DNA of 64,000 nt from a virus. This document shows positions 26,201-42,096 of this stretch, in pieces. The DNA is taken from the IMG/VR virus record IMGVR_UViG_3300032297_000372, positions 27,614 to 91,613 of that record. One strand, written 5' to 3'. The position numbers and the translations under genes were made by a program. Below the pieces are notes generated by a model. The model worked only from the letters and a program-made list of their open reading frames with translations, ran no database searches and was not told the DNA's origin. Positions within the stretch are counted from its first letter, which is position 1. Every line of letters starts with the position of its first letter.

Positions 26201-29200
26201 AAATCGTATTAAAGGTTTAGAATATTATGTTGCTCTGAACGCACTTGAGAAAAATGCAAATGATTCAAAAGTTCTAGATGCCAATGGTTTAGAAAGATCG
26301 AAATATGGTATTCTAGTAGATAACTTTACTTCAACAGATGTACAAGCATCTTACAGTGATGTTAGTTTTGACAATCGTTGCTTAGTAGAAAACGGTGAGT
26401 TGAAACCAGCCTCATTAATGCGTACATTTAAATTAGATTTTGATGAAGATGCTTCTTCTGGTAATTATGCTGCTGTTGGTGTAGCCGATAAGAAAACATT
26501 AATGTTGGCATATTCAACAACAGAAATGGTTAAACAACCTTACGCTACTAAAACTGTTCCTGTTGCTGGTGCCATTTATGGTAACTTTAACGGAAAGATG
26601 AAACTTTTCCCAGAATTTACCATGGAAAGTGACATCGATAAAACAGCAAGAGTTACATTGAATTCTGTTCAAGGATTAGAAAATGCATTTAATTTCGTTA
26701 ATGAGGCATTTCAATTTATAAGTGATGCAAATCCTACATGGGTAAATGATGCTAACAATCCTTTCGCAAAAGTTGTAGATTCTAAATGGTTCGAAACAGT
26801 ATCAACTGTTACTAATCAAACCGTAGGCCTTGGTGGTAATGTTTTTGGTAATCAACAAATTACTACAGACCGTGTTTACATTTCAAAAGGCGCCACACTA
26901 AGTCAAGAACAATTTGGTGTTTCAACCAGCGAAACTAAAATTGGCGATTTCGTTACTGATGTTTCTATCAACCCATATTTGAAGCCTAGAGCTATTACAT
27001 TTATCTCTAATGCTCTTCGCCCATTCACAAGATTCTATTCATTCTTTGATGGTACAGCTGTAGATAACTTTATCGTTATTCCTAATAAAGTATATTTGGG
27101 TGCGAACACAGAATTCTCTGATGGTGAGGTAGCACTTTTAGCAAATAATACTGGTGAATTAGCTACTCAATTGAATAGTTGGTTGGCTGGTGGAACAGCT
27201 TTCAATTTAGTTCGTGTAGTTAATTCAATACCGGGAACAAATACAGTTTCAATTGTTAATGAAACTGGTTTAGCATTAACTGGTAAATATCTAAAAGGAT
27301 TGACATCACTAAAAGAAGGTTACATATCTACTTTAGTTGAACATAAGTCTGGTATAACACGAACCTTAACATCAAATACTATTACATTAGCTTCAGATGC
27401 TCCTTCTGTTAATATTGCTGGTAACACAATATACTTCATACACGAAGCCTCAACTGAAGAGGGTAGAGGTTCTTCTTATACAATTACAAACTATAATACA
27501 ACAACTAAAGTTGCTAATATTTCAGGTACACTCAGTACCACAGATGCAGCTTCAAATAGTTGGATATATTCTATAGGTACAAACATAACAAATAAACATG
27601 GAGATATTGCTGGTGTATTCTACCCACCAGCAGCAACATTCCGTACAGGCGAAAGAAAACTACGATTAACAGAATCATTCAACAACACTTATGATTTAGA
27701 TTCTATTTCATTTACTGAAAAGACTTTTGTATCTTCAGGTGTAACTGTTAACAAAACAACTTTAGTTGATACAGTTTACAATGTGGATGTTGGTGTTAAA
27801 GTTGTAGGTACAGCTACTTCAGCAATCTTACAATCTACCGCTTCTGAAAGTAGAATTACAAGTACATGGCGAGTTGACCCATTAGCACAAACTTTCTTTG
27901 TTGATCCTTCAGTATATCCAAATGGATTAACAATGTCTAGTGTTAATGTATTCTTTAGTTCTAAAGATGATGATTTGCCCGTATCAGTACAAATCCGACC
28001 TACAATTAATGGATTACCTTCTTCCGATTTCTGGTATCCTGAATCTGTTGTTGTTAAAAATCCTAATGATGTTACTATTACTTCAGCTCCTGATGCGGAT
28101 GATTTAACAACATCAACTGAGTTTACTTTCCCTTCTCCTGTTTTCTTAAAACCAGGTCTGTACGCACTAGTTGTATTGTGTGATAGTCCTGATTACATAG
28201 TATGGACAGCAGAAAAAGGACAAACAACCACAGGCGGTCAGTACGTTTCAATTAATCCTTATGTTGGTACATTGTACAAATCTCAAAACTCTATGGAATA
28301 TGTTCCATATATTAATGAAGATTTGATGTTTGTTTTGAATAGATGTGTGTTTACAACAGATCCAGCAAACTTCGTATTAAGAACTCCAAACTTTGATAGA
28401 AAGTATAACATCGATAAGTTTAGATTGCTTGATCGAGGAATATCATTACTTTCAAATGAAGCTTTCTCTGCAAGTTATTCTTTCATTTCTAAACCTGTAG
28501 ATGGTGTTAAAGAAACGGTATATAGAACTATTGAGCCAAGAGTAACTTACTATATGGGTGACGATACAAAATATGCTATTGGGTATAGAAGAAAAGAAGT
28601 TCAGAATTCTGGCGATTTCATGATTAAATATCAAATTTCTACCAATGATCCTGCCGTTTCACCGATGGTATCTTTAGAAGCTATGCACTTAAATGCATGG
28701 GAAAACTTCATCGACAATGCTGAAATTAATGAAGAAGATTTTAATATCATATCACCAGGTTCTGGTTATGCAAATTCGAATACAGTTACAATCTCATCAA
28801 CTACAGGTTCGGGTGCTTTAGTTTATCTGAATGTTGATCCTAGTGGTAACGTTTTAAGTTTGAATGTTGCTGCAAGCGGTACAGGTTATTTGGATGACTT
28901 TAGTATTTCAGTTCCAGTAACTGCTTCAAATGCTTCTATTGTATTGAATAGTGAATATGATAGTTCTGGCGGTCCATGTTTAGCAAGATACATTACAAAA
29001 CCAATTACTCTTGCTGATGGTTTTGATGCTGGCGATATAAGAATATTCTTATCAGCAAATAAACCGACTGGTACAGAAGTTACTGTTTTTGCTAAAATTC
29101 TATCTTCATCTGATAGCACTCCATTTAAAGATAGAGGTTATCAGAAATTAGAATGCTTCAATCCAACAAACTTTGCTACAACTAAAGAAAATGAATTTAT

Positions 29201-29375
29201 AGAATATGAATTCAGACCTTCTTTGACAGAAGATAATATAACTTACACAGCCGATAACGGAATTATTTACGATAATTTTAAAACATTCTCAATTAAAATT
29301 GTCATGACTTCCCTCGATCCTTCAGTTATTCCGAGAGTCAAAGATTTAAGGATAATTGCTTTACCGGCAGGTTAA
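23208..29375 (+). CDS. VrlC-like large virion structural protein
   Basis: Motifs PYNDDFDEDKNF.RLLFRPGYALQARELTQLQTIL, LARRTFEESGNY, DPLAQTFFV and the C-terminal PRVKDLRIIAL, typical of the VrlC-like proteins of T4-like cyanophages. Confidence 0.85.
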   Translation: MTKLFNFDPYNDDFDEDKNFMRLLFRPGYALQARELTQLQTILSSQIEKFGNHIFQNGSPITGGKISLDDRANYVILETQYSGADISLDLFLNTTVVSYNSTKNVRAKVIAIDNNTNTTPVMIVKYLSGDRFAETDEIKVVGQNLFAQVRANDAVGRSYVASIQEGVYFFKGQFVKVVPEFLVLEPFYRVGNNSTVINKQPSYKIGIEFDELVIDEVDDASLLDPAQGSFNYQAPGATRFKVDTRLSKRTLDSADESSFFEVIRLVNGVKTKEIDYPIYSELEKTLARRTFEESGNYTVDPFVLSMQEDWQDPANNNVVNADYFSAILDPGKAYVGGYEFQTIAPTVLGIPRARATSNVSDYDVPTSYGSYVFVKNVSKTLDVTSFPQLDIHCVSAEKIDTSSTAKYDSTKIGTLRANMLKYDDATSRADGLTHIHRMHVFQVNTSSIIGTTAASASTNTVVKLPTSFTANGGINAYANMYFRITDGAGLAVAPILIESSNNANLTITLQSALPFIPASNAFSIDADFYRAEGFSVKSGTSLTFSANVDSSSKDTDGFSLITEKSRENAVFDLPFEAIKQGTIDNFDFYATKLYSNKVSNLGGTISFAPNGTDTFAFAGSAGVLGQTTILNNIICFVRPETNANVQFGIYPNTILSLANSNFTVTAVGDGSLTFDIRVPATYVDFLIKTKVNNAEAGATGAIRSKTLRPSLSAAEDLHVKVPYNLKPAGTDLERLTSSNTGTVTTFTGGYVFETVGATFFDTTSAMADLKTPGKAVSLQVPDIFEIVRITDSRTNTTNVTTAMLTSDDHDVTSHYEFDNGQRRTHYDHATIRLKRGYSSPIGSTLLVQYKYYAHGLSPQNSGLFTVDSYPGDYADIPLFNDKEGNRLISARGFLDFRPTRAIAGTTIANGVNADPDEVAELSFEHYLSRIDQIVVKPSKEIGVIQGQPGVKPVQPTVSGDDMLIYTLYIPPYTDDVKVIRADFKNNRRFTMSDIGAFENRIKGLEYYVALNALEKNANDSKVLDANGLERSKYGILVDNFTSTDVQASYSDVSFDNRCLVENGELKPASLMRTFKLDFDEDASSGNYAAVGVADKKTLMLAYSTTEMVKQPYATKTVPVAGAIYGNFNGKMKLFPEFTMESDIDKTARVTLNSVQGLENAFNFVNEAFQFISDANPTWVNDANNPFAKVVDSKWFETVSTVTNQTVGLGGNVFGNQQITTDRVYISKGATLSQEQFGVSTSETKIGDFVTDVSINPYLKPRAITFISNALRPFTRFYSFFDGTAVDNFIVIPNKVYLGANTEFSDGEVALLANNTGELATQLNSWLAGGTAFNLVRVVNSIPGTNTVSIVNETGLALTGKYLKGLTSLKEGYISTLVEHKSGITRTLTSNTITLASDAPSVNIAGNTIYFIHEASTEEGRGSSYTITNYNTTTKVANISGTLSTTDAASNSWIYSIGTNITNKHGDIAGVFYPPAATFRTGERKLRLTESFNNTYDLDSISFTEKTFVSSGVTVNKTTLVDTVYNVDVGVKVVGTATSAILQSTASESRITSTWRVDPLAQTFFVDPSVYPNGLTMSSVNVFFSSKDDDLPVSVQIRPTINGLPSSDFWYPESVVVKNPNDVTITSAPDADDLTTSTEFTFPSPVFLKPGLYALVVLCDSPDYIVWTAEKGQTTTGGQYVSINPYVGTLYKSQNSMEYVPYINEDLMFVLNRCVFTTDPANFVLRTPNFDRKYNIDKFRLLDRGISLLSNEAFSASYSFISKPVDGVKETVYRTIEPRVTYYMGDDTKYAIGYRRKEVQNSGDFMIKYQISTNDPAVSPMVSLEAMHLNAWENFIDNAEINEEDFNIISPGSGYANSNTVTISSTTGSGALVYLNVDPSGNVLSLNVAASGTGYLDDFSISVPVTASNASIVLNSEYDSSGGPCLARYITKPITLADGFDAGDIRIFLSANKPTGTEVTVFAKILSSSDSTPFKDRGYQKLECFNPTNFATTKENEFIEYEFRPSLTEDNITYTADNGIIYDNFKTFSIKIVMTSLDPSVIPRVKDLRIIALPAG

Positions 29376-29376
29376 T

Positions 29377-29607
29377 ATGAGAGTTAGAGTAGAAGGTACA
29401 CACTTCGTTAAAGACACCAAGACAACCGCACTGTTAGCTACTAACCGTGCGGTTTTGGCCGAGAATGAAGCTAGAAAAAAATTAGGTGAGAGAATAACTG
29501 GTAAAAATGAAGAGATAAATAGTTTAAAATCTCAAGTTAATACCTTAACTGAAGATATGTCCGAAATAAAAAAGATGTTACAGATTCTCTTAGAAAAGAA
29601 CAATTAA
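29377..29607 (+). CDS. Small coiled-coil hypothetical protein downstream of vrlC
   Basis: The ATG at 29377, just after the vrlC stop, is more plausible than the TTG at 29356. C-terminal heptads EINSLKSQVNTLTEDMSEIKKMLQILL. Confidence 0.7.
   Translation: MRVRVEGTHFVKDTKTTALLATNRAVLAENEARKKLGERITGKNEEINSLKSQVNTLTEDMSEIKKMLQILLEKNN
29514..29521 (+). promoter_or_regulatory. Late promoter-like GATAAATA inside the small ORF
   Basis: About 95 nt upstream of the tail fibre gene at 29617. Confidence 0.45.
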
Positions 29608-29616
29608 AGGTTTAAG

Positions 29617-32600
29617 ATGCCAATTTCACAAATCGAAAATATAACAAGAACTAATACCATTGATGAATGGAGAATACAGACTAATAAATCTGCCTCTGAT
29701 TTAAATGATCTTGGTTTTTCATCATATGATAAAACGCAAGGTACTTTGATTATATCAAATACTGCGTCATTACGAATTACTGCATCAGGAACTCCTTTTG
29801 AGGTTGTTAATAGTGTTCTCTTTCAGAATAATCTATCGTTAGCAAATAACTTTTATCTAGGTACTGTAGGCACTCCAACAGGTAATGCTATTATTGGTGG
29901 TACAGTAAGTATTGGTGGTTCAGGTGCAACTTCATTAAATGTCGCTAATGGTGTAACTGTTGGTACAGATTTAGCGGTAACTAGAAATATTTCTGCATCA
30001 AACGCTGCTTTTAGTAATCACATAACAGTAGCAAACAACATAACAGCCTCAGGCATTCTTCGTTTACCTGGAACGGTTGCAGAAAAAGGAAATGTAATAT
30101 ATGCAAATTCTGGTTCAGCTTATATTAATACAGTTTTTGCATCAACAATTAATTCAGCAAACGTAGCTTCAGATAACGTAAGAGCATTGCAAGCAACCTT
30201 TGACGTTCTGAACCTTATTGGTTTAGGCACAATGTTAAATTTGCAGGTTTTCAATGATGCGTTCTTAGTTGATATTATTGCTACAGGTAACAGTTATTTT
30301 GATGTTGCTAATGTTCGTTCATTAACAGTTAACTCTTCAGCAAACATAGTAACATTATCTTCGAATACTTCTACGATTAATAACGCAATCTTAGGAAATG
30401 CCACTGTAACACGAGCTAACGTCACAAACATGACGGTAGACCAAACAGGTAATGTTGTAACTTTAATTTCGAATCTATCATTAATCAATACTGCAAATAT
30501 TTTAATAACAAATGCAAACGTTGGTAATATTCGTAACTTTAGTTTAGGTACTGGTAGTATTACAACAGCTGCAATAGAAAATCAAACTTTCAATGTTGCC
30601 GTTGGTAACACAAGCACAATACAATCAGCAAACATTGTTACATTACAATCTAATCAAGCGACAATCAATACTGGTAATGTAACAAGAATCTTTGCTTCTA
30701 ATGCAAATGTAAGTACAGTAAACGTTTCCTCATTAGTAGATGTTACTACTGGTGGTTTAGTTAGAGTTGCTGCTGGTGCTTCTCCAGAAACAACTGTATT
30801 GCAAGTTGCAGGTAAAACTAACTTAGCTAACGTAGTTATTGACGGCAATTTAACTGTATCGGGTGCGTTCACACAAACCGGAACTGTAAACTTCCAGATT
30901 CAGTCTTTCTTATTGAATGCAAATACGGCTACAAATCTTGATGCTTCGATTATTAATAAGAGAGCTCTAGGTGATAATGCTATTATTAATTGGGACGAAT
31001 CTGTAGATCAGTGGAAGATTTCTACAGGTAATACATACTCACAATTAAACAGAATACTCGATGCTGGTCAATTATCATCACAAGTAACTAATACAAGTAT
31101 TACTGATGTCGCAACTCCTGCTGCGGTTAACACAGTACATACGATTTCTATTACTGCAAGTCATTATGCCAATGCAGCATTCTTACAAGCAAATACTCCT
31201 AGTCACGTATCGAATAGTGCGTCTAGTTATGCTAACTCTGCATTCTTGCAAGCGAATACTCCGAGTCATGTATCTAACTCTGCGGCACTCTATGCTAACG
31301 CAGCCTTTATAGTTGCAAACACACCAACTCATGTGGCAAATTCTGCTGCTTTATATGCTAATGCGGCATTTATCGTTGCGAATACACCAAGTCATGTTGC
31401 CAATAGTGCAGGTTTCTATGCTAACGGTGCATTTGTAAAGGCTAATACCGCAGATATCAATGCTAATGCAGCTTCATCATACGCTAATGCGGCATTCACT
31501 CAAGCTAACTCTGCATTCGTATCAGCAACTAACGCTCAACTTGCCGCAGATGCCGCACAAGGAACAGGTTCAGCATCTTACGTTTTAGCAAATACAACTA
31601 CCAATACCGCTTTAGCAGGATTTGCAGTTGCCAACTCCGCAGCACTTTATGCTAATTCAGCTTTCTTGAGAGCTAATAATTCATTGTTAAGTTCTGGCGG
31701 AACAATGACTGGTGATTTAACCATGTCAGGTAGTAACTCGATCAATGCATCAAGAGCTAACATTGCTTTTGATTTATTAGGTGTTAGAACAGGTGCATCT
31801 GGTGCTAGAATTGTGATGAACTATGACATCATTCAATCTGCTGATCCATTGTTCAGAGCATCACTTGTTGTGGATAGAGGTGTAAGTCCTAACGTTGAGA
31901 TTCGTTGGAATGAACCTACAGCAAAATGGCAGTTCACGAATGATGGTTCTACTTACACCGACTTTGGTGGTAGTACCGCACCTGCCGTTGCCGGAGGTAC
32001 AAATAGACAGATTCTAGTACAGACTGGTGTAGGTGCAACAGGTTTCATTGATGCTCCTTCAACTGCTAATAGATACTTACAATGGACAGGATCAGCATTT
32101 ACTTGGGCTGAGGTACCTAGTGCAGACTTAACTGAACTGAGTGCAAGTAATCTAACATCTGGTACTATACCTGCGGCTAGAATGCCGGCAACTGGTTCTT
32201 TTGGATTTAATATTACAGGTAGCGCAGGTTCAGCATTGACTGCTGCAACAGCAACAACTGCTACAACAGCAGTCAATGCCACAAATGCAGTAAACATTTC
32301 TGGTGGTAATGTACAAAATGCTTTAGCCTTTACAGTGTTAGGTACTCCAAGTATCGGTGACGGAACATCAACATTCTATAATAGACTTTATATTAGAGAT
32401 GGCGGCACAACAACAAGTAAAACTGATCCTTCAGATACAGCAGCATTAAAAGTTTTAGGTGATATAGCTGTCTCTACTGATGTTTGGGCAACTTTGTTTA
32501 ATGGTACCGCAACATCAGCTCGATATGCTGACTTAGCAGAAAAATATTTACCTGATGCGGATTATCCTGAAGGTACTGTAATGGCCATAGGTGGTGAAAA

Positions 32601-32877
32601 AGAAGTTACTGCCGCTTCTGATGTTGACTTCAGAGCTATAGGTGTGATATCATTGAAACCTGCATTTAGAATGAATGAAAATCTAGAGAACGGTGTTTAT
32701 GTTGCACTGAAAGGTCGAGTGCCTGTACGAGTAAAAGGTGAAATCAAAAAAGGTCAACCTATTGGCACAAGTGATACTTTAGGTGTAGGTAAACTTAATG
32801 CACGTAATCATTTTGCTATTGCATTAGAAACAAAAACAACTGAAGAAGAAGGTGTAATAGAAGCATTAATTCTTTAA
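29617..32877 (+). CDS. Tail fibre protein with C-terminal intramolecular chaperone (peptidase G2/IMC-like autocleavage domain)
   Basis: N-terminal TNTIDEWRIQTN, beta-rich Asn/Thr repeats and YANAAF heptad repeats. The C-terminus reads ARYADLAEKY...GVIS.KPAF.MN...VALKGRVPVRV.G.I.KG. Confidence 0.78.
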   Translation: MPISQIENITRTNTIDEWRIQTNKSASDLNDLGFSSYDKTQGTLIISNTASLRITASGTPFEVVNSVLFQNNLSLANNFYLGTVGTPTGNAIIGGTVSIGGSGATSLNVANGVTVGTDLAVTRNISASNAAFSNHITVANNITASGILRLPGTVAEKGNVIYANSGSAYINTVFASTINSANVASDNVRALQATFDVLNLIGLGTMLNLQVFNDAFLVDIIATGNSYFDVANVRSLTVNSSANIVTLSSNTSTINNAILGNATVTRANVTNMTVDQTGNVVTLISNLSLINTANILITNANVGNIRNFSLGTGSITTAAIENQTFNVAVGNTSTIQSANIVTLQSNQATINTGNVTRIFASNANVSTVNVSSLVDVTTGGLVRVAAGASPETTVLQVAGKTNLANVVIDGNLTVSGAFTQTGTVNFQIQSFLLNANTATNLDASIINKRALGDNAIINWDESVDQWKISTGNTYSQLNRILDAGQLSSQVTNTSITDVATPAAVNTVHTISITASHYANAAFLQANTPSHVSNSASSYANSAFLQANTPSHVSNSAALYANAAFIVANTPTHVANSAALYANAAFIVANTPSHVANSAGFYANGAFVKANTADINANAASSYANAAFTQANSAFVSATNAQLAADAAQGTGSASYVLANTTTNTALAGFAVANSAALYANSAFLRANNSLLSSGGTMTGDLTMSGSNSINASRANIAFDLLGVRTGASGARIVMNYDIIQSADPLFRASLVVDRGVSPNVEIRWNEPTAKWQFTNDGSTYTDFGGSTAPAVAGGTNRQILVQTGVGATGFIDAPSTANRYLQWTGSAFTWAEVPSADLTELSASNLTSGTIPAARMPATGSFGFNITGSAGSALTAATATTATTAVNATNAVNISGGNVQNALAFTVLGTPSIGDGTSTFYNRLYIRDGGTTTSKTDPSDTAALKVLGDIAVSTDVWATLFNGTATSARYADLAEKYLPDADYPEGTVMAIGGEKEVTAASDVDFRAIGVISLKPAFRMNENLENGVYVALKGRVPVRVKGEIKKGQPIGTSDTLGVGKLNARNHFAIALETKTTEEEGVIEALIL

Positions 32878-32878
32878 T

Positions 32879-33352
32879 ATGATAACTATTGATGAGTTTG
32901 AGAATTTTATACAACATGATTTGGTATATGAACAAAAGTTAATTTCTATACTGGATGACCTAGGTCGACAAATTTATATTGATGATCTAGGTCAACTTCA
33001 TTCCAACTACGGTAAAACCGTAAAAGTTGAGGGTATGGAAAAATATAATGCACAAATATATGACACATGTTGTGAATTGCAATACGTATATAATCATAAT
33101 GGTGTCGTGACTTGTCATGCTTTCAGAGCTTATGAAAATTCTGCAAGTTTTGGAACTCATACTGATCCTGATGATGTTTATATACACGTTATTTGGGGAG
33201 AAAAAACTCTTCAAATAAAAGATGAAATTCACATATATCGTTCTGGTGAAAGTGTATTCATACCTTCTAATACCCCACACAAAGCTATAAACGAAAAAGA
33301 ATCTTTAATATTAAGCTTTGGTCTTGAAAAATTTCTAGTAGATAAATTATGA
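32879..33352 (+). CDS. JmjC/cupin_4-like Fe(II)/2OG oxygenase
   Basis: SFGTHTDPDDVYIHVIWGEK...GESVFIPSNTPHKA supplies the HxD...H triad and the Lys typical of JmjC/ROX cupins. Confidence 0.72.
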   Translation: MITIDEFENFIQHDLVYEQKLISILDDLGRQIYIDDLGQLHSNYGKTVKVEGMEKYNAQIYDTCCELQYVYNHNGVVTCHAFRAYENSASFGTHTDPDDVYIHVIWGEKTLQIKDEIHIYRSGESVFIPSNTPHKAINEKESLILSFGLEKFLVDKL

Positions 33353-34407
33353 ATTGGATGTTTTATTTAAAGACCACTGAAACATGTAATTTAAATTGTA
33401 AACATTGTTTCACTAATGGCATTAATGGTCCTAAAATTTTCTGGAATGCCATAAAGATTACTGATTGGATTAAACGTTTCAGAGCATATTACCCATCTAA
33501 TTCTGATTCTATACATTGTGAATTTCACGGTGGTGAGCCGTTTTTAGTTCCTGTTCATGAAATGCGTCATGTGTGGGAAAATTGTAAAGACTTGTGGCCT
33601 GCCATGACTTGGGGAGCAACAACGAATTTAGTATTTAAGATGGATCAAGAACATTATGATTTTATAGAAGAAGCTTTCGATAATAGAATAGGAACTTCTT
33701 GGGATCCTAAAATTAGATTTGCCAATAATAAACAATATAAACTTTGGCATAGTAATGTTAAAAGCCTATTGAATCGTGGCGTAACTGTAAAACTTTTTAT
33801 AAGTGTAACACAAGATACATTAAATATAGAACCCATAGTATTGTTACGTTGGATTCGTAGGTTAGGTGTACAAGAAGTTTCGTTTGAGAGATTAACTCAG
33901 AATGGTAACGCTAAAAAATATCCTGAAATATTTCCTAACAATATTGAACAAGATAACTGGTTTCTAAAATTATACGAACAATCTGAGAAATATGGTGCCA
34001 GAGAATGGTTCGATAATGAATTTTTAGAAGTAATTTATTCAAAATTTGATACCGGATTCTTGAAAGGTGGAACTTTCTGTAGAGATTGTGAAGAAAAGAT
34101 ATTCACTGTAAATGCTGACGGTACATTATCAGGATGCCCAAATTCTGCTCCAGAATTTCAATTTGGACATATAAATGATAATCTGGAAGATGTTATAAAT
34201 AGTGAAAGAAGAATAGAAAATATATCATGTGAACGTAGTAGAGATCCTAGATGTTTTTCATGTGATGTGTTTGAATATTGTGGTGGAGACTGTCATCAAT
34301 TAGAATGGCAAAATGATGTTTGTGGAGCTCCAAAAAGTTTAATGAGATATTTAAAAAATAAACAAAAAAATAAAGTTTGGATATTAAAAAATGGCAACCT
34401 TAACTAA
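33349..34407 (+). CDS. Radical SAM/SPASM domain protein (rSAM-1)
   Basis: CNLNCKHC (CxxxCxxC), FHGGEP, and SPASM-like C..C..NADGTLSGCP...CFSCDVFEYCGGDC...C. Confidence 0.92.
   Translation: MNWMFYLKTTETCNLNCKHCFTNGINGPKIFWNAIKITDWIKRFRAYYPSNSDSIHCEFHGGEPFLVPVHEMRHVWENCKDLWPAMTWGATTNLVFKMDQEHYDFIEEAFDNRIGTSWDPKIRFANNKQYKLWHSNVKSLLNRGVTVKLFISVTQDTLNIEPIVLLRWIRRLGVQEVSFERLTQNGNAKKYPEIFPNNIEQDNWFLKLYEQSEKYGAREWFDNEFLEVIYSKFDTGFLKGGTFCRDCEEKIFTVNADGTLSGCPNSAPEFQFGHINDNLEDVINSERRIENISCERSRDPRCFSCDVFEYCGGDCHQLEWQNDVCGAPKSLMRYLKNKQKNKVWILKNGNLN
34194..34201 (+). promoter_or_regulatory. Perfect T4 late promoter TATAAATA inside rSAM-1, upstream of the 181-aa gene
   Basis: Exact consensus about 190 nt upstream of the ATG at 34391. 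Confidence 0.55.
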
Positions 34408-34936
34408 TAATATTAACCCTCAAAATATCGTTGATAGATTTGCTGATTATGTGACAGCCACAGCTAGTGCAGGAATTACATGGGGAACTAATGCTAAACC
34501 CTTTAGTCAATTTGATGCGGGTTATCTTGGAGGAACAACCGCAGGTAGACCTATTGGTATATCAGGTGGAAATATTTCTGCTGTTGGTGGAACAATCACA
34601 GCTTCAGCAATTTACAACACTCTAGTTAATGAAACCGCACAATATACTTCTATTAGAAGTTTAAGAGCTATTCTACATTTAACCGGATCAGGCAACCAGT
34701 TCGATCAAACAGCTATTGCTTATATGAGTTATGGATCGTATGGGCAGAGTATTGGTTCACCAGCAAATGCTGGCGTCTCAGCAGGATCGACAATAACTAG
34801 TAGTGGTTTAGAATCGCTTTTTAATAATTTAAGATCATCGTATAATACTGCAAGAGCAGCCACAACTACGATAACTGTTACTGTTTGTCACACATCGTGT
34901 CATTCATCCTGCCACGGTTCTAGAGGAAGAAGATAA
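34391..34936 (+). CDS. Putative virion/fibre-tip protein with C-terminal (CHxS)3-RGRR motif; candidate substrate of the radical SAM cluster
   Basis: The body is rich in Gly/Ser/Thr/Ala/Asn like the structural proteins. All three Cys lie in the terminal CHTSCHSSCHGSRGRR (34886-34933). The substrate role is inference. Confidence 0.6.
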   Translation: MATLTNNINPQNIVDRFADYVTATASAGITWGTNAKPFSQFDAGYLGGTTAGRPIGISGGNISAVGGTITASAIYNTLVNETAQYTSIRSLRAILHLTGSGNQFDQTAIAYMSYGSYGQSIGSPANAGVSAGSTITSSGLESLFNNLRSSYNTARAATTTITVTVCHTSCHSSCHGSRGRR

Positions 34937-35652
34937 TGAATATTGTTGAAACTACTGCACCCATCTCGATTGAAAATTTAAAAAAATATTTTAATGACCA
35001 GACTACTTTTTTTGTTATTGATTATAAAGACAGTAGTTTAAAAGGAACAAAACTATTAACATATCTTTCGAATTTAGATATACCTTCTGACATAAACTTT
35101 ACAGGTTGTTCTAGTGATGAATGTTTTGATATGATTAAAGAATACCTACATTCTACAATGATTGTTAATATTCCTGCACTTGAGTCGGCAGTTATCAATA
35201 TATTACATCAAACTAAAAATTTAGTTCCAGTAACAGATAAAAAATTTATTGACGATAATAAAGAAATTTTAGATAAGTGGATTTCAAAACTAGAAAGTTT
35301 ATCCCTATTCAATATGCATATTATTGGAAACGGAATGTTCAAAGAATTTGTTTCTGAGTTTGAAGTCGATGCATCAACTGAATTGATCGGTGTTAATTTT
35401 ATTAGTTTATTAAAGAATGAACATTTTTATTCTTTCTATAATAATACCGATAAAAAATCATTAAAGTTTTATACACATTATTTTAATGATTACATGTTCA
35501 AAGGTAAAAATATGTATTCATATTGGGCTAATGAGAATAATCCTTTATTTTTATTGACATACGGTATTTCAGAAGGCCTTGTAGAAGGAAATTCTTATAA
35601 CTCATACAAACAAAAAACAATCGAGGAATTAGAAAATGTTACACCTGTTTAA
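34936..35652 (+). CDS. Hypothetical protein (radical SAM cluster accessory)
   Basis: 238-aa ORF with a TAATG overlap with the 181-aa gene. No recognised motif. Confidence 0.65.
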   Translation: MNIVETTAPISIENLKKYFNDQTTFFVIDYKDSSLKGTKLLTYLSNLDIPSDINFTGCSSDECFDMIKEYLHSTMIVNIPALESAVINILHQTKNLVPVTDKKFIDDNKEILDKWISKLESLSLFNMHIIGNGMFKEFVSEFEVDASTELIGVNFISLLKNEHFYSFYNNTDKKSLKFYTHYFNDYMFKGKNMYSYWANENNPLFLLTYGISEGLVEGNSYNSYKQKTIEELENVTPV

Positions 35653-36730
35653 TAAAGTTTACTTAGAGTTCGATGATAGAATAGAAAATCATCTAGATCG
35701 AGTTGTTATTTCAGAACAATACGGAGATCAAATGTATGATCTTTTGGAAAAAGCTGTTCTTGGAAAATTAATACTATATGGTAAAAGTTTCGAAGAAGTT
35801 GTTGGTGACGACTTTTTAGGATTCATAAAATCAATAAAAGAATATGGTGATAACTCTGGTAAAAAAATCATTATTTTCTGTGATAGAACTTCATACAAAA
35901 AATTTATGGCTCATTGGTTTAGATCAACATTACCTAATTTAGATTATGACGGATTTAAAACTATTGTAGATCATACGATTTATAATCAACGAATAATTTC
36001 GAATACCCAACTATCTTCAATGTTCAGTGTTAATCTAAATTCACTATGGGAAGATTTGGATGATATCGAATCTGCGTGGGCAAACGCACAATCTGTAAAT
36101 AGAACCTCGTTGAAATCTTTGAATTTAAATCATACATATGAATTTTTATTATCAACTTATTTGTCTGGTGATAATTCACATAAAGAAGCCTTGAAAAAAA
36201 CATTGCACATGTTTTTACGCCGTTGGTTTATAGAAATGTTTGTTGACAATCGACAAATGGTTTTATTGAATCTTAATAACCATAAATTCTTAAGCACATT
36301 TAATATTGATCCTAAATTGATAGATTTAACTCGTTTAGATCCTTTAGATGTAATAGAACAATTTGAATCTTACTCCGATGATGAAATATGGGAGAGAGAT
36401 GAGAATGCTTATGGTAAATGTAAATTGGAAGGTTTGAGTGAAGAAAAATGTCTAAAGTTGATGGACACTTTATATAATGTTTTTGAAAAATTTGAGGGTA
36501 TGCAAATCGACCGTAGTGTTTTTGGAATTAGAAAATATGTTACTTTAACAACTCGTGAAAGTATAACAGATGCTGAGATGGATGACATATTGGATTTTGT
36601 TATCAATAATCCTTTCGACACTTCTCTAGTTCCACGTGTTGATTTTCAAAATGTTAATTTCACTTTAGTGCAATATTTTCTGACTCAAAAATACAATAAA
36701 AAAGATATATCGAAATATAGATTGTTGTAA
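35636..36730 (+). CDS. Hypothetical protein (radical SAM cluster accessory)
   Basis: 364-aa ORF overlapping the previous stop, with a GAGGA Shine-Dalgarno upstream. No confident family. Confidence 0.65.
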   Translation: MLHLFNKVYLEFDDRIENHLDRVVISEQYGDQMYDLLEKAVLGKLILYGKSFEEVVGDDFLGFIKSIKEYGDNSGKKIIIFCDRTSYKKFMAHWFRSTLPNLDYDGFKTIVDHTIYNQRIISNTQLSSMFSVNLNSLWEDLDDIESAWANAQSVNRTSLKSLNLNHTYEFLLSTYLSGDNSHKEALKKTLHMFLRRWFIEMFVDNRQMVLLNLNNHKFLSTFNIDPKLIDLTRLDPLDVIEQFESYSDDEIWERDENAYGKCKLEGLSEEKCLKLMDTLYNVFEKFEGMQIDRSVFGIRKYVTLTTRESITDAEMDDILDFVINNPFDTSLVPRVDFQNVNFTLVQYFLTQKYNKKDISKYRLL

Positions 36731-36731
36731 A

Positions 36732-37784
36732 ATGCGTGATTTTATTATTGAACGTAAACGTGATATTGAACAAGAATATACTTTACATCTTTTTGAATAT
36801 TGTAATTTAAGATGTTCTTTTTGTTGGCAAGACCATGAAAATACAATTGGAATTGATACTGTAATTGAAAAATTAATTCCAATTGAAAAATTCTTACAAA
36901 CAGAAACTCGCCATTCAGTAATATTTAATGTTATGGGTGGTGAGGTTTTTGCTCCAAAAATATTCAATACCGATCTACTCAATGCCTATAAAGAATTAAT
37001 ATCAGGCATAAAACAACTTGAAGGTAAATACAATAAAAAGATAAAGTTAAATTGGGTTACTAATTTAGTTACCGATAAGATCGATCTTATAGAGTCTCTT
37101 TTATCTTTTTCAGAATCGGTCAAGCTTGAATCTAATCTCGTAACATCTTACGACCCTCGTGGCAGGTTTAATGTTAATGACTTCTTAACGTTTAAGAAGA
37201 ATATGGAATACTTTGGTAAACGTATTACATGCATAAGTATGTTGTTGAGTTCGCCTAATATAGATTACATACTTAAAGATAGAGACAATTATTTCAAAAA
37301 GTTGTATAATGAAGGTTATTACATATATTTTGATTACTATATGCCTGACGAATCTGCGGAGTTTCAATCACCTACAGATCAACAACTGAGAGATGTTTTT
37401 AGACATTTTATTGATAATTATCCCAATGTATATCCTATTAAAGATTGGATACAAAATGAAACTAATTATGCATCATGTAGAACGAGTAAATTAATACTTG
37501 CAGACGGAACGATGTGTAATTGTGGTAATTTAGTACAAGATGAAAAAGTTATAAAATTTTATTCATCTAAAATACAAAAAATGGATAACTCAGAAATTGA
37601 AAATAATTTCTTAGAAAAATATGATTGTGTTTCGTGTGAGTATCTAGATAGATGTAGTTTTGGTTGTTTCATGCAACATGATTATAAATTTAGGGAAGAA
37701 CTTGATGAGTGTGTCTATAAACTTACGCACAGATACATCGATGATGTTAGATTACAACGAGGAAGAAAAGCCTCTATCGGTTGA
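36732..37784 (+). CDS. Radical SAM/SPASM domain protein (rSAM-2)
   Basis: CNLRCSFC, MGGEV, and C-terminal SCRTSK..ADGTMCNC...CVSCEYLDRCSFGC...C. Confidence 0.9.
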   Translation: MRDFIIERKRDIEQEYTLHLFEYCNLRCSFCWQDHENTIGIDTVIEKLIPIEKFLQTETRHSVIFNVMGGEVFAPKIFNTDLLNAYKELISGIKQLEGKYNKKIKLNWVTNLVTDKIDLIESLLSFSESVKLESNLVTSYDPRGRFNVNDFLTFKKNMEYFGKRITCISMLLSSPNIDYILKDRDNYFKKLYNEGYYIYFDYYMPDESAEFQSPTDQQLRDVFRHFIDNYPNVYPIKDWIQNETNYASCRTSKLILADGTMCNCGNLVQDEKVIKFYSSKIQKMDNSEIENNFLEKYDCVSCEYLDRCSFGCFMQHDYKFREELDECVYKLTHRYIDDVRLQRGRKASIG

Positions 37785-38280
37785 TGTACCTAAACATATT
37801 GAAGTTTCGTTAGATACTGTACCAATTGCATATCCTTATTTGCCACGATTATGTGGTAGGCAAGGATATGTTTTTATGTGGCATACTACACGTGACGTGG
37901 AACCAGATTTATATGATTTATCACAAAGTGTAAAAGATGAAGAACAGTGGTTTACTACTAAGGATCCAAACGGTATCGAAAAAGTTTTATCTCTTGTACA
38001 TGAATATGATGATGAAGTCGTTATTGGTTGTGTAAAATCCGCAGGTTATTTAAAACACAAGCCTAACGAATATATCAATAAACTAATAAAGAGTGCCTGG
38101 AAAGATTTAATATCTATATTCGGTCATAAGAGAATTATTTGTCCTAGCGGTTCGTATTTACAGTATGTGCATTTGTGTCTTAACCAGAAAAAAATACCTC
38201 ACACACCATATTCCAAAAAGTTAATGATGAGAAATAAATTTTATAGAGATGGTTACTATTGGATTCGAGACGGTCGTTAA
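37741..38280 (+). CDS. Hypothetical protein (radical SAM cluster accessory)
   Basis: The ORF track starts it at 37660. The in-frame ATG at 37741/37744 gives a smaller overlap with rSAM-2. Its stop overlaps the next ATG (TAATG). Confidence 0.6.
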   Translation: MMLDYNEEEKPLSVDVPKHIEVSLDTVPIAYPYLPRLCGRQGYVFMWHTTRDVEPDLYDLSQSVKDEEQWFTTKDPNGIEKVLSLVHEYDDEVVIGCVKSAGYLKHKPNEYINKLIKSAWKDLISIFGHKRIICPSGSYLQYVHLCLNQKKIPHTPYSKKLMMRNKFYRDGYYWIRDGR

Positions 38281-38717
38281 TGATATTACATAATATTCTC
38301 ACAAATGAAGAGTGTAAATTTATATTGAATATTTTAATAGACAAATATCCAGAGCTATTACATTCGAATAATCATATTGAAACAGAAGATGAATCTTTAA
38401 ATTTCATCACAATGATACCTAAAAGTCATGTTGAAAATTTAGGCAATCCTTTGTGCCTTGTACTATTAAGTACTGTTAATGATAGAAGTGATTATGCAGG
38501 AAAAGAATGGCATGTGGATGGTGATCCTGATGAGACAAGTGTAATTTTATATTTAAATGGTAATAATGAAAGTGGTGGAGAATTTGTAACCGAAACGGAT
38601 AAGTATAAATTCGATATTGGATCGATGATAGTTCTTCGTTCTGATAAACTACATAAAGTAGAACCTTACAATAATGATAATGCAAGGATCGCTATAAAAT
38701 GGAAATTTAAATCATAG
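38280..38717 (+). CDS. 2OG-Fe(II) oxygenase (prolyl-4-hydroxylase-like)
   Basis: WHVD...SVILYLN...GGEF...LHKVEP.....RIAI shows the HxD...H...R pattern. The start is moved to the ATG at 38280. Confidence 0.82.
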   Translation: MILHNILTNEECKFILNILIDKYPELLHSNNHIETEDESLNFITMIPKSHVENLGNPLCLVLLSTVNDRSDYAGKEWHVDGDPDETSVILYLNGNNESGGEFVTETDKYKFDIGSMIVLRSDKLHKVEPYNNDNARIAIKWKFKS

Positions 38718-39743
38718 ATGGATTTGATAATTAAGCCTACCGAAAGGTGTAATTTTAAATGCACTTTTTGTTCGAGTACAAATATAACTGAAGATAAGTC
38801 TATGGAGTTAGACTTAAATTATATCTATGAATTCTTAAAACGTTTTCCCGAAACCAATACTATAATTGTTAATGGCGGCGATCCATTAATGATGGATCCT
38901 CAATACTATTGGGATTTAATCAAACACCTGGATGAGATTGGTTCACATTCTACCATCTCTTTCACCAGTAATCTTTGGCCATTTTATAAAAATCCTAACA
39001 AATGGAAAGACTTATTTAATCATCCACGAATGGGAGTGACCACATCTTTTCAGTATGGTGGAGGTAGATTGAAAGGTGATCTATCTGAATTTACTGAAGA
39101 AGATTTTTGGAAATGTAGTAATGCGATGTTAGAACATTGTGGTTATAGGCCAGATTTTATTAGTGTTATCACTGAAGAGAATGAACATCAAGCTATCAAG
39201 AATGTAGAACTTGCTAAACGCATGAGTGTTGAATGCAAACTTAACTATGCAATGAGTAGTGGTCCCCCAGTTAAATTTAAAGGCATCATAATGGGACAAC
39301 AAGGTAAACCATATTTGCTAGCAAACATCTATGAAATATATGTTGAGATATGGAAAAAAGGATTATATCCTTGGGAATTTAACACTAAACAGATGATGAA
39401 ACGATTGAAGGGTATGAGTACTTGTTGCCCTCAAAATAGAGAATGTGATGGTGGAATTAGAACATTACAACCATCAGGAGATTATTATTCTTGTGGAGCC
39501 TTTGGAGATGATAAACAATTTCCTATAAATTTTAAACAAGAAATGAATGGGTCTAAAATTTTCCCTATCCGTTCTATTCAAGAATTACAAACCATGACAG
39601 ATGACTGTTATACTTGTCCTATGTTTGAGATATGTAACGGTTGTAAAAAAACTATTAAAGACCATAAAGATTATGGTTTGGCAGAAACCCATTGCCGTAA
39701 AATGAAAACACTATCAAATGATATTATACAATCTAATCAATAA
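38718..39743 (+). CDS. Radical SAM/SPASM domain protein (rSAM-3)
   Basis: IKPTERCNFKCTFC, NGGDP, and CCPQNREC...PSGDYYSC...CYTCPMFEICNGC...HC. Confidence 0.92.
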   Translation: MDLIIKPTERCNFKCTFCSSTNITEDKSMELDLNYIYEFLKRFPETNTIIVNGGDPLMMDPQYYWDLIKHLDEIGSHSTISFTSNLWPFYKNPNKWKDLFNHPRMGVTTSFQYGGGRLKGDLSEFTEEDFWKCSNAMLEHCGYRPDFISVITEENEHQAIKNVELAKRMSVECKLNYAMSSGPPVKFKGIIMGQQGKPYLLANIYEIYVEIWKKGLYPWEFNTKQMMKRLKGMSTCCPQNRECDGGIRTLQPSGDYYSCGAFGDDKQFPINFKQEMNGSKIFPIRSIQELQTMTDDCYTCPMFEICNGCKKTIKDHKDYGLAETHCRKMKTLSNDIIQSNQ

Positions 39744-40236
39744 AGGATATTATCTTTGTAGAGATAATGAACCATTTCAATTTATAGATATCAACACGAT
39801 TGAATGGACAGATAAAGGTACTATACCATTAAGAATGGTTAAAAGAACTGAGTATGTAGAACAAATACTTTCAACTACACAAAAATTTCTGGCTGAGAAA
39901 TATGTTCGACCGATATTTGGTGATTATCACATGGACTATTGCGATCTTGTCAATGGTATGGATGATAATGTTTATGAGTGGCATAATGATTATGAGGAAG
40001 GCAAAGTAAATCTTGGTATACTTTTGTACTTCTCAGATACAGATGAAGAAATCGGTAGCGGTATCGGATTTAGAAATCCTGAAACCAAAATAGAACATGA
40101 CTTTTTTTATCCAAAATCTGGTGATGTATGTTTTCTAAATCATACCACCAAATTCGAACATAGAGTAACTAAACAAAAAATACCAATTCCTAGAATAGTA
40201 GCAAGTTTCCATTATCATGTTGACTCTCTCAATTAA
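39718..40236 (+). CDS. 2OG-Fe(II) oxygenase
   Basis: WHND...LLYFSD...YPKSGDVCFLN...FEHRV......RIVASF. Confidence 0.8.
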   Translation: MILYNLINKGYYLCRDNEPFQFIDINTIEWTDKGTIPLRMVKRTEYVEQILSTTQKFLAEKYVRPIFGDYHMDYCDLVNGMDDNVYEWHNDYEEGKVNLGILLYFSDTDEEIGSGIGFRNPETKIEHDFFYPKSGDVCFLNHTTKFEHRVTKQKIPIPRIVASFHYHVDSLN

Positions 40237-41146
40237 TCCTTGGTATTACTGTAACTATAGATGTGAATTTTGTTACTTAACCGAAGAACAATTATCAGAT
40301 AAAAAATTACTTGATCTTGATCGTTTATCTGAAATGCTTGCGGAAGTTTCTTCACAGTCTAAAATTATGATGGTCGATCTGTATGGTGGAGAATTAGGTT
40401 TACTTCCGAAAGATTATTGGAATTCTTTGATCGACTTACTACACATTTACGGTATATACGATATCAACCTAATAACAAATCTTTCGATGGTTAATGATAT
40501 TACCACAGATGAAAGAGTTTATACCTCGGTCAGTTTTGATTTTGAAGCACGTGAAGACTACCAAAGGGTTTGGCGAAATATGGCCATGTTGAATAAACCT
40601 TTTTCGATTTTGATGTTAGCTTCTCCGAATCTTATTATTAAAGACGTTGGTGAAATGATACAGACTCTTAACGTTCTTAAAAATTTAGAATCTGTTGAAA
40701 TTAAACCCTACAGTACTAATCAGAGTAATCAATTAAACATTAAATACAGTGAATATGAATCTTTTGTGCAAAAGTGGATTACTTATTCTGATAAAAACTT
40801 TTCATTTACAAATGAACTATTGATCGAATCTGTTCTTGATAAAACTCGAAACAGTTTTTCTGACGATCACATTTACATTACTCCAGAAGGTAAATACGGT
40901 GTTTTAGAGTTCGATCTAAATGATAATGAATTCTTTTTGGAATACGATACGTTAGACGAATATTGGCAATGGTGTGAAAAGGAAAAGCATAGAGTTGGGT
41001 TGAATAAATATTGTTCGAATTGCGATTATTACGGTAATTGTTTATCTGAACATTTACGTGAAGTGAAATCGTTGGATGAAAGTTGTAATGGATTTAAAAA
41101 CCTTATAGATTGGTATAAGAATGATCGATTCGGAATGGAAAATTAG
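40217..41146 (+). CDS. Radical SAM protein with atypical auxiliary-cluster domain (rSAM-4)
   Basis: CNYRCEFC, LYGGE, ITNLS, and C-terminal CSNCDYYGNCLSEH...SC. Confidence 0.88.
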   Translation: MLTLSINPWYYCNYRCEFCYLTEEQLSDKKLLDLDRLSEMLAEVSSQSKIMMVDLYGGELGLLPKDYWNSLIDLLHIYGIYDINLITNLSMVNDITTDERVYTSVSFDFEAREDYQRVWRNMAMLNKPFSILMLASPNLIIKDVGEMIQTLNVLKNLESVEIKPYSTNQSNQLNIKYSEYESFVQKWITYSDKNFSFTNELLIESVLDKTRNSFSDDHIYITPEGKYGVLEFDLNDNEFFLEYDTLDEYWQWCEKEKHRVGLNKYCSNCDYYGNCLSEHLREVKSLDESCNGFKNLIDWYKNDRFGMEN

Positions 41147-41537
41147 ACAAGAAATATTTCATCGATTAAACACAAATCATGATGATGATTTAAAATTACA
41201 TCATGTTGTTATTGATGAAGATATCATTCAATCTTCTATAAAATATTTTACAACCACAGAATTGGGGTGGGTATATCCAGCAAAAAGTTATGTTGTCGGT
41301 ATATGTTATGCGAGATGGATTAGTCATTATTTTCAAGAAAGTTTTTATGAGGTCTTAGATGACCCTTCATTATTATATAATAATGATCCTTATTTTGTGC
41401 CTTATAAAGACGATAAATATACTTATGATTGTATAATATCTCAGATAGGTCTAGACTTTGACGAATCGTGTGGTATTATACCAGATATTAAAAGTTATTT
41501 TTTGAAAGAGTTTCAATTAGATGAATCATGGGTTTAA
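41121..41537 (+). CDS. Hypothetical protein (radical SAM cluster accessory)
   Basis: 138-aa ORF overlapping both neighbours, with segments YPAKSYVVGICYA and LLYNNDPYFVPY. Confidence 0.62.
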   Translation: MIDSEWKIRQEIFHRLNTNHDDDLKLHHVVIDEDIIQSSIKYFTTTELGWVYPAKSYVVGICYARWISHYFQESFYEVLDDPSLLYNNDPYFVPYKDDKYTYDCIISQIGLDFDESCGIIPDIKSYFLKEFQLDESWV

Positions 41538-42096
41538 TGACTTTTGGCCAACTACTTTTTATCAGGGTAAAATAGAAGATGATAAAATTTTAGAAGACTT
41601 GGCTAATGAATTTTTTTCTATAAGAAACTTTGACCAAGATTATTCTGAGAAGAATAGTTTTAATTTATTCGACCTAAAGACAGACTCAATTTTAAAATTT
41701 AAAAATGATATAGTTTATCCTGCGTTTAAACTATACCTGAGTAAAGTTTTTAATCAAAATATAGATGATTTTGGTTACAAGATGAAGTCTTGGTTTAACC
41801 AGTCTAGTCTACCTAGTCATAATCATTCTGGCGCACATTTAAGTGCAGTTTTTTATATTTTGTGTAGTAACCGAATAGATGAAGGAAATATCATATTCAC
41901 GGATCCTAGAAGCAATTCGAATCGTGGATACCCGTTGAGTTTTCAAAATATTTTTGAGCCGGTAGTATATCAACCGGTGATGGGAGACTTTATAGTCTTT
42001 CCTAGTTTTGTGTATCATTATGTTAGTGCTTGTTCGTCAACTCATAGATTATGTGTCCCAGTAGATTTATTTTTAGAAAATAAAAAGGTAAAATAG
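41521..42096 (+). CDS. Putative 2OG-Fe(II) oxygenase (TIGR02466/2OG-FeII_Oxy_5-like)
   Basis: SWFN...HNHSGAHLSAVFY...GNIIFTDPR...GDFIVFPSFVYHYV......RLCV. Confidence 0.82.
   Translation: MNHGFNDFWPTTFYQGKIEDDKILEDLANEFFSIRNFDQDYSEKNSFNLFDLKTDSILKFKNDIVYPAFKLYLSKVFNQNIDDFGYKMKSWFNQSSLPSHNHSGAHLSAVFYILCSNRIDEGNIIFTDPRSNSNRGYPLSFQNIFEPVVYQPVMGDFIVFPSFVYHYVSACSSTHRLCVPVDLFLENKKVK

Follow-up and report, generated by a model that had tools for sequence, protein, structure and literature searches.

The 64,000-nucleotide stretch analysed here, hereafter the window, covers positions 27,614 to 91,613 of the IMG/VR virus record IMGVR_UViG_3300032297_000372 and encodes, at 34391..34936 on the plus strand, a protein of 181 residues (P0001) that ends in three Cys-His-x-Ser units and a short arginine block. 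We call it the CHxS protein; its gene directly follows that of a radical S-adenosylmethionine (rSAM) enzyme, rSAM1, in a cassette with three further rSAM genes. We favour, with some confidence, the reading that this protein is associated with the phage particle and that the rSAM enzymes encoded beside it modify its tail, by cross-linking or another putative chemistry. We observe a nearly invariant tail, strict linkage of the genes and intact catalytic cysteine sets. In addition, the tail is predicted to be flexible on a folded body, one homologue is found in particles with a high apparent mass, and relatives are fused to Peptidase_S74 and Gly_rich_2 domains. The nearest solved or named relatives of rSAM1 are maturases of proteins or peptides (anSME, CteB, PapB, DynA and YhhB), and HxsA (PMC13128918) and CrpC (PMC13692751) may serve as precedents by analogy.

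Translation bore out the original prediction for the end of the protein. The open reading frame (ORF) at 34391-34936 closes with ...TVTVCHTSCHSSCHGSRGRR*, and its last 16 residues, CHTSCHSSCHGSRGRR, consist of the units C-H-T-S, C-H-S-S and C-H-G-S followed by R-G-R-R. This putative modified core (34886..34933, plus strand) runs from C166, which starts at 34886, to R181, which ends at 34933; a leading valine that had been included in the motif lies outside it, at 34883-34885. As had been noted before, the tail holds all 3 cysteines and 3 of the 4 histidines of the protein, the fourth being H96. The tail of P0001 contains no Asp or Glu, the isoelectric point of the whole protein is 9.2, and trypsin would release the C-terminal peptide AATTTITVTVCHTSCHSSCHGSR. 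No other CH..CH was found in the six frames of the window.

The tail is the best-conserved part of a large family. Homologues numbered 656 in a word-based search, and a profile search of 1.84 billion proteins gave 713 representatives (of 50% clusters) at E<=1e-3. In a pattern search set beforehand as a test of conservation, C-H-x-[SN]-C-H-x-[SN]-C-H-x-[SNA]-R-x-R-R formed the exact C-terminus in 135 of the 150 best representatives of the profile search; the exceptions had two or four units, an extra residue before the Arg block, a replaced middle Cys, or no R-x-R-R. When 24 sequences down to 28% identity were aligned, 8 of the 15 invariant columns fell in the last 16 residues, and the pattern was retained by relatives 28-37% identical overall, as it was across unrelated phage lineages. 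Within P0001 the repeats use different codons (tgt cac aca tcg / tgt cat tca tcc / tgc cac ggt tct), from which selection at the protein level had been predicted. The family upholds this: among 88 distinct tail DNAs, Cys is encoded by TGT or TGC, His by CAT or CAC, and Ser and Arg by six codons each, with the residues fixed, and we therefore place the selection on the peptide and not on the DNA.

The second carrying observation is the linkage to rSAM genes. We retrieved 80 viral loci with the CHxS family profile, 77 of them with upstream DNA. Tabulating the neighbours showed an rSAM gene immediately upstream of the CHxS gene in all 77, in agreement with the expected association; the neighbour was rSAM1 in 76, and in the last locus (L097) an rSAM2-like gene intervenes between rSAM1 and the CHxS gene. 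A homologue of unk238 lay immediately downstream in every viral locus with room for it, and a cupin gene lay upstream of rSAM1 in most loci. The same gene order recurred in 9 further, distant loci (31-37% identity) and in 12 contigs from metagenome-assembled genomes (MAGs), and in four phage lineages the cassette is situated in the baseplate or fibre module. For the reverse test, rSAM1 orthologues were located in 15 cultured-phage records, from Ralstonia phages of the RSL2/RSF1 type, the Burkholderia jumbo phages FLC6, FLC8 and S13, Agrobacterium phage Atu_ph07, Sinorhizobium phage Phosso and Pseudomonas phage pPa_SNUABM_DT01. A CHxS-tail gene stood immediately downstream in 14 of the 14 records checked; the fifteenth, MF403008.1, duplicates the Atu_ph07 RefSeq record in GenBank, has its match at the same coordinates and was left outside the count. 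The cupin gene was upstream in all four cultured-phage regions inspected. Two outcomes that had been named beforehand as refuting, loss of the tail among homologues and homologues lacking rSAM neighbours, were thus looked for and not seen. Megablast with the cassette and tblastn with P0001 against cultured phages gave no match; a more distant member of the CHxS family used as query did retrieve them.

Some loci depart from the common arrangement. The cassette version of the cultured jumbo phage pPa_SNUABM_DT01 (L011:14464-19941) has six rSAM genes; a gene for a Mu gp45-like central spike and one for a transglycosylase are nearby. Two contigs from a Rhodobacteraceae bin (L023:7887-8722 and L025:6062-6879) carry two tandem short CHxS-tail genes of 134-140 codons; in L025 a cupin-rSAM1-rSAM3-rSAM4 block lies ~4.4 kb downstream of them and is not adjacent. 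The cassette also occurs on Bdellovibrio-like MAG contigs from predatory Bdellovibrionota bins (L017, L018, L020, L022 and L026), where a second rSAM1-like paralogue follows the CHxS gene and where L018 has a fragment of a bacterial-type AMP-binding enzyme upstream; these copies may be chromosomal, prophage or mis-binned phage contigs. The rSAM cluster of the jumbo phages RP31 and RP12 was considered and rejected as a cassette: it is a different cluster of four rSAM-like genes (L107, record 80787-86742) with no CHxS-tail protein, and some phage rSAM clusters therefore fall outside the CHxS cassette. ORF78 of the RP31 virion (Ralstonia phage RP31 proteome, PMC5468394) was likewise rejected as evidence, the protein being unrelated.

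As judged from its sequence, rSAM1 (33349..34407, plus strand) is a full radical SAM/SPASM enzyme. The CxxxCxxC motif occupies residues 13-20, with C13, C17 and C20 present and invariant, and the auxiliary-cluster cysteines C244, C247, C263, C302, C305, C311, C315 and C325 are invariant in 9 orthologues; the SPASM model TIGR04085 scored 36.1 bits, above its cut-off of 27. We found no N-terminal recognition domain. The best NCBIfam models (PapB, DynA, an archaeal peptide maturase, anSME and YhhB) scored 35-51 bits against cut-offs of 300-450, PapB, DynA and YhhB giving the best full-length alignments of both rSAM1 and rSAM3, and the best solved matches of the rSAM1 profile were anSME (top), 8VPO and CteB. 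The four rSAM paralogues form separate orthologous groups across phage lineages. With PADLOC, nothing beyond generic rSAM-core matches to the viperin models was obtained. Complex prediction of rSAM1 with the CHxS protein, three [4Fe-4S] clusters and S-adenosylmethionine returned scores of 0.46, 0.25 and 0.01 against a mark of 0.32, which weighs neither way on binding. The conserved partner unk238 was modelled with AlphaFold 2 at a predicted local distance difference test (pLDDT) value of 89.3; it has no invariant Cys, and a PDB sequence search, Atlas, Foldseek and VIA-align gave no fold match and nothing informative on its relatives. Pfam, NCBIfam and related searches recognised no protease or exporter in the cassette.

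The AlphaFold 2 model of the CHxS protein, made with the family alignment, predicts, with confidence, an alpha/beta globule of about 165 residues (pLDDT 86.7, predicted template modelling score 0.79) and a tail at pLDDT 43-53 against ~90 for the body, consistent with a flexible tail on a folded body. Foldseek of the model against the PDB returned nothing at E<=1e-3, the wide VIA-align search had a best Z of only 4.0, and the BFVD search found only the family itself, from Atu_ph07 and an uncultured myovirus. As modelled, the body is neither a fibre nor a known virion fold and has no solved relative. No Pfam domain matched P0001, nor did any NCBIfam family at E<=0.1. The C-x3-C-H spacing also recalls the CX3CH haem-attachment motif, a reading that we rejected by inference, the protein lacking an export signal and any connection to a haem-attachment system.

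Domain fusions in relatives add a structural context. In the rare relative P0284 (315 residues; L106:9001-9948), four CHxS units lead through a Gly/Asp-rich linker into a Peptidase_S74 intramolecular chaperone that begins at SDERLK (Pfam, 1.5e-11), and rSAM1 and unk238 again flank the gene. Its locus contains only rSAM1 and rSAM3, and a 2-oxoglutarate (2OG) oxygenase replaces the cupin. In known fibres the Peptidase_S74 chaperone folds the trimer and then cuts itself off, and it works in trimers only. By analogy, this one rare fusion would imply that CHxS proteins form trimers. Other relatives have an N-terminal Gly_rich_2 domain. P0001 differs from the Peptidase_S74 fibre proteins in having no such domain, P0284 being the only, rare relative with it.

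Evidence for presence in particles comes from Agrobacterium phage Atu_ph07, whose virion proteins include gp170 (31.89 kDa, 8 unique peptides, 35% coverage; Attai et al. 2018, PMC6102473 Table S5). The computed mass of the 296-residue gp170 equals this tabulated value, and those of its neighbours gp176 and gp177 match too. Aligned with the CHxS family, gp170 gave an hhalign probability of 98.7% (E 3.6e-16) over its last 73 residues, and its C-terminal peptide ends ...DFCHSSCHASCHNSR. It was detected in gel slices 1-9 with the highest abundance in slice 1, which holds proteins of 87-137 kDa, whereas proteins of ~30 kDa peak in slice 8 (PMC6102473 Table S5). The rSAM enzymes gp165, gp168 and gp171, the cupin gp172 and the unk238 homologue gp169 are not in the virion table (PMC6102473 Table S5), and the papers on phages FLC6 and S13 report no proteomics for the CHxS protein. 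The virion-like structural carrier of the original prediction is thus supported insofar as a homologue is listed among virion proteins; the predicted fold is globular alpha/beta and not fibre- or virion-like.

These observations fit a pathway in which the CHxS protein would be made late, together with the tail-fibre genes. Its folded body would stand in for the leader of a ribosomally made, post-translationally modified peptide (RiPP) and be recognised by the enzymes, and the flexible tail would be presented to rSAM1 first and probably to the other paralogues and oxygenases; rSAM1, whose gene shares 17 nucleotides with the start of the CHxS gene, is the first candidate maturase. Cys, His and/or Ser/Asn of the tail would be modified after translation, and the cupin and 2OG oxygenases may contribute further tailoring. 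As candidate chemistries we consider thioether formation, cross-linking of His to Ser/Asn, for which triceptides, dynobactin and HxsA are examples, and Cys-to-formylglycine conversion as by anSME. The body would later anchor the matured protein, probably as a trimer, in the particle near the fibres or baseplate, where it would form a basic tip, rigid and cross-linked, probably inside the trimer and possibly with links between chains. The tail as substrate, the enzyme acting on it, the chemistry and the role in the particle are thus what we infer from the gene and its surroundings. A more specific form, which we hold only tentatively and think rather doubtful, has the rSAM enzymes stapling the CHxS ladders of three chains to each other, perhaps also to the fibre, through thioether and/or His-Ser links into a basic tip that acts at the cell envelope. 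The idea of a RiPP-type core on a folded carrier in place of a leader was already in the original prediction; tail conservation and rSAM linkage leave it the best reading, with the modification itself still a proposal.

The closest known system is the bacterial HXS antiphage system, of which the CHxS protein is, on its sequence, not a member. There the rSAM enzymes HxsB and HxsC, with HxsD, mature HxsA, whose sequence has five basic His-x-Ser repeats. HxsA gains +8 Da on SHRSS, in which S, H and S are each essential; it binds DNA and prevents phage DNA from entering (Li et al., Nat Commun 2026, PMC13128918). Both systems have a folded protein, not a short peptide, that bears tandem basic His-x-Ser units next to rSAM genes, and S-H-x-S-S of HxsA resembles C-H-x-S-C of the CHxS tail. 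However, HXS is bacterial and acts against phages, whereas the CHxS cassette is borne by phages. The five repeats of HxsA lie near the N-terminal part of an exported, periplasmic protein with a peptidoglycan-binding domain; the three CHxS units lie at the extreme C-terminus, each after an invariant Cys and with R-x-R-R behind them. The CHxS cassette moreover has four SPASM-type rSAM enzymes, a cupin and 2OG oxygenases, and no HxsD. The likeness to rSAM-linked His-x-Ser repeat proteins that had been proposed thus holds for the H-x-S units and does not extend to membership: the NCBIfam His-Xaa-Ser repeat model of HxsA gave no match to P0001 at E<=0.1, rSAM1 scored 27.6 bits against HxsB (cut-off 370) and rSAM3 31.2 bits against HxsC (cut-off 267.9), and NCBIfam gave no match to HxsD among the cassette proteins.

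With the rSAM/SPASM maturases of whole proteins (anSME on sulfatases, PDB 4K36-4K39; QhpD on QhpC; CrpC on CrpA), rSAM1 shares the lack of an N-terminal recognition domain, and the target of these enzymes is a Cys within a short motif on a folded protein. It differs from them in scoring 32-51 bits against cut-offs of 340-350, in facing a tail with neither C-x-P/A-x-R nor an Asp/Glu acceptor, and in that the target is a phage-particle protein accompanied by several paralogous enzymes. The substrate motif of anSME is (C/S)-x-(P/A)-x-R; the last CHxS unit, C-H-G-S-R, has the same Cys-to-Arg spacing, with Gly, Ser or Asn where Pro or Ala is expected, and the anSME model TIGR03942 gave 40.5 bits against a cut-off of 349, which places rSAM1 outside that family. 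One recent precedent at the protein level is the SPASM enzyme CrpC, which installs thioethers on the protein CrpA (PMC13692751).

The tail also resembles the cores of PapB/freyrasin ranthipeptides, SCIFF/CteB, triceptides and DynA in its 4-residue Cys period and its aromatic/His-x-(Ser/Asn) unit. Both are spacings of thioether- and cyclophane-forming rSAM/SPASM enzymes. PapB-type cores combine Cys with Asp/Glu acceptors. The PapB model reached 51.4 bits against a cut-off of 340, outside the PapB type. A kinship with SCIFF and ranthipeptides, which had been suggested from the Cys spacing, did not hold up, all named maturase models falling far below their cut-offs: SCIFF/CteB (TIGR03974) scored 19.2 bits against 425, and P0001 has 181 residues and 3 Cys where SCIFF has ~45 residues and six Cys. 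Triceptide systems pair an aromatic-(or His)-x-x core unit with a 3-CyFE-type maturase (XyeB, YhhB, FxsB, GrrM); the three H-x-S units fit the former, and of the enzyme models YhhB scored 35.7 bits (cut-off 445), FxsB and XyeB less. In contrast to these systems, the CHxS cassette has no short leader-plus-core precursor, RiPP recognition element, protease or exporter, its product would remain on a protein of at least 165 residues, and no family cut-off is reached. In a strict RiPP a leader is removed from a short precursor to release a peptide; the body of the CHxS protein is predicted to be a folded domain of 165 residues.

Several points weigh against a modified, particle-associated tail. Modification of the tail is putative in every family member, and no named maturase family was above its cut-off among the NCBIfam models for the cassette rSAM enzymes, so that the reaction is not assignable from homology. 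The Atu_ph07 particles were purified with polyethylene glycol only, and the 131 proteins reported include the non-structural RecA-like protein, single-stranded DNA-binding protein and ribonucleotide reductase (PMC6102473); particle association is therefore unproven, the more so as it depends on one distant homologue aligned over its last 73 residues only. The high-mass migration of gp170 could come from a trimer stable in sodium dodecyl sulfate (SDS) or from aggregation, and not from covalent links. At least four rSAM paralogues stand against one short tail, and some of the enzymes may serve other substrates. Oxygen-sensitive rSAM enzymes are odd in phages of aerobic surface-ocean hosts. Finally, Cys and His are a classic metal-ligand set too.

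Metal sites built from His and Cys are familiar from the tips of phage spikes and fibres, such as the His-x-His iron ladder of T4 gp37, the zinc site of gp12, P2 gpV and PAAR proteins. On that pattern, and we think this unlikely, the tail would be a metal-binding trimer tip, free of covalent modification, in which three tails meet on the three-fold axis and bind metal through Cys and His, for example in three Cys3His3 sites, while the substrates of the rSAM enzymes would be other fibre-module proteins. Cys and His are indeed equally invariant, Ser/Asn could be second-shell residues, the chaperone of P0284 comes directly after the repeats, the repeated Cys/His motif ends a protein of the fibre or baseplate module as in those systems, and an SDS-stable trimer would account for the high-mass gel slice of gp170. 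The trimerisation evidence has thus strengthened the metal-binding tail that had been named earlier as an alternative. Such a tip gives no account, however, of the overlap or abutment of the CHxS and rSAM1 genes in every locus and lineage examined, including those with quite different fibres; the 4-residue period with conserved Ser/Asn fits known rSAM target motifs (H-x-S, Cxxx); the CHxS fold is not a fibre, beta-helix or PAAR; and three 32 kDa subunits, 96 kDa together, should run below slice 1 (~87-137 kDa), itself a weak point. We know of no metal-binding fibre or spike tip tied to rSAM enzymes. Modification of the tail and a metal-binding tip are mutually compatible.

We consider it very unlikely that the protein is no structural tip but a phage counterpart of the HXS effector, with an rSAM-matured basic tail that binds DNA and acts at the cell envelope, where it might, for instance, keep out superinfecting phages or handle the DNA end of the phage itself. 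The basic His-x-Ser repeats, rSAM maturation, DNA binding and block of phage DNA entry known for HxsA (PMC13128918) would suit it, as would the three H-x-S units with Cys before each where HxsA has Ser, the R-x-R-R and the pI of the whole protein. Yet P0001 has no signal peptide, peptidoglycan-binding domain, or Pfam or NCBIfam match, HxsD is missing and the HxsB and HxsC scores are far under the cut-offs; the gene lies in a late fibre module and not among early genes, and the homologue gp170 is present in particles. That the protein is a helper and no substrate at all, for example an Fe-S carrier, electron donor or scaffold whose Cys/His tail supplies the cluster ligands, we regard as extremely improbable. 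Fe-S assembly genes do occur in marine T4-like phages rich in rSAM genes (PMC5332604), and three Cys plus three His could hold a cluster; the homologue, unlike the enzymes, is found in particles, the fusions to a fibre chaperone and Gly-rich structural domains nevertheless indicate a structural role, the fold is unlike a ferredoxin, flavodoxin or scaffold, and the tail is terminal and predicted to be disordered. The proposal that the tail is modified by the co-encoded enzymes thus remains the one we favour.

The IMG/VR viral contig from which the window comes measures 91.6 kb and has a completeness rating of 52%. PHROG matches in it describe a T4-type late region with neck protein, sheath stabiliser, large terminase, baseplate hub and wedge proteins, including a wedge protein of 4146 residues, and fibre-like giants. 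The large terminase is ~54% identical to those of Pelagibacter phage HTVC008M and cyanomyoviruses; on this identity and the late region we read the source, as far as sequence relationships tell, as an uncultured marine T4-like myovirus. The 4146-residue ORF (9375-21815) lies between baseplate wedge genes in a gp7-like position, giant ORFs flank the cassette on both sides (2055 residues, 23208-29375; 2121 residues, 42679-49044), and an ORF of 304 residues at 49044-49958 carries a Laminin_G_3/concanavalin-like domain. The tail-fibre-like gene upstream of the cassette (29617..32877; 1086 residues) has PHROG tail-fibre matches at its C-terminus and no Peptidase_S74 domain by Pfam at E<=1e-3, and ends 1 nt before the cassette.

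The cassette consists of co-oriented overlapping or abutting genes in the order cupin, rSAM1, CHxS, unk238, unk364, rSAM2, (unk206), 2OG, rSAM3, 2OG, rSAM4, unk138, 2OG and a fibre-assembly-like gene; the tail-fibre-like gene before it and the cassette genes located below are on the plus strand. Its first gene encodes a cupin/JmjC-like oxygenase (32879..33352; Pfam Cupin_2 6.3e-10, JmjC_2 1.8e-6). Behind the CHxS gene, unk238 (34936..35652) is joined to it by TAATG, and unk364 (35636..36730) has no family match and is present in most loci. The rSAM/SPASM paralogue rSAM2 (36732..37784) was recognised by domain searches, and rSAM3 (38718..39743) is the most conserved of the rSAM enzymes, with 55-64% identity across phage lineages; rSAM4 (40217..41146) has a reduced, twitch-like C-terminal Cys set. 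Among the oxygenases are a 2OG-Fe(II) oxygenase at 38259..38717 (Pfam PF13640, 4.5e-6), a 2OG-Fe(II) oxygenase-like protein at 39718..40236 found by Pfam search, and a 2OG-Fe(II) oxygenase at 41521..42096 (phrog_81), the last preceded by the conserved unk138 (41121..41537; phrog_20737). The TTG-start ORF unk206 (37660-38280) overlaps the end of rSAM2 by ~125 nt. Homologues of unk206 occupy the same place in many related loci, and it is, from its sequence, probably a real gene with a later start.

The motif ATAAATA precedes most late genes of the window by 10-100 nt, including the fibre gene (copy at 29515), and is likely the core of the late promoter here. The sequence TATAAATA lies inside rSAM1 (34194..34201, plus strand), 197 nt before the CHxS start. 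Only 2 copies occur in 64 kb against 11.6 expected, the other (468-475) before the first baseplate gene, and loci L002-L004 have TATAAATA at the same -197 position, as the sole copy in 11-20 kb. One explanation may be a late promoter within rSAM1 that raises expression of the CHxS gene; alternatively, its position may merely reflect the conserved I-N-S (Ile-Asn-Ser) codons of rSAM1.

Papers on pelagimyophages, marine viral genomes and jumbo phages treat rSAM, cupin and 2OG genes as accessory genes only. Our literature search found no paper describing the CHxS tail or its link to enzymes, and none on rSAM maturation of a phage-particle protein. Peptides and a few cellular proteins are known to undergo such maturation, as is, since 2026, a bacterial antiphage effector. 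The cassette is widespread, its family counting hundreds of representatives. It is placed in the host-recognition region of marine T4-like phages and of Ralstonia, Burkholderia, Pseudomonas, Agrobacterium and Sinorhizobium jumbo phages, and occurs in Bdellovibrio-like MAGs. If the tail is modified, the Cys-His-x-Ser unit would bear a new post-translational chemistry, the purpose of many unexplained rSAM genes in marine and jumbo phages would be explained, and cultured systems (Atu_ph07 gp170, RSL2 ORF068 and DT01 QTH80265) would be at hand for the role of the tip in adsorption or DNA delivery. If the tip is stapled, a RiPP-like pathway would act on a particle protein in several unrelated phage lineages, and the CHxS protein would be the first virion component matured by rSAM enzymes, a viral mirror image of the HXS defence effector.

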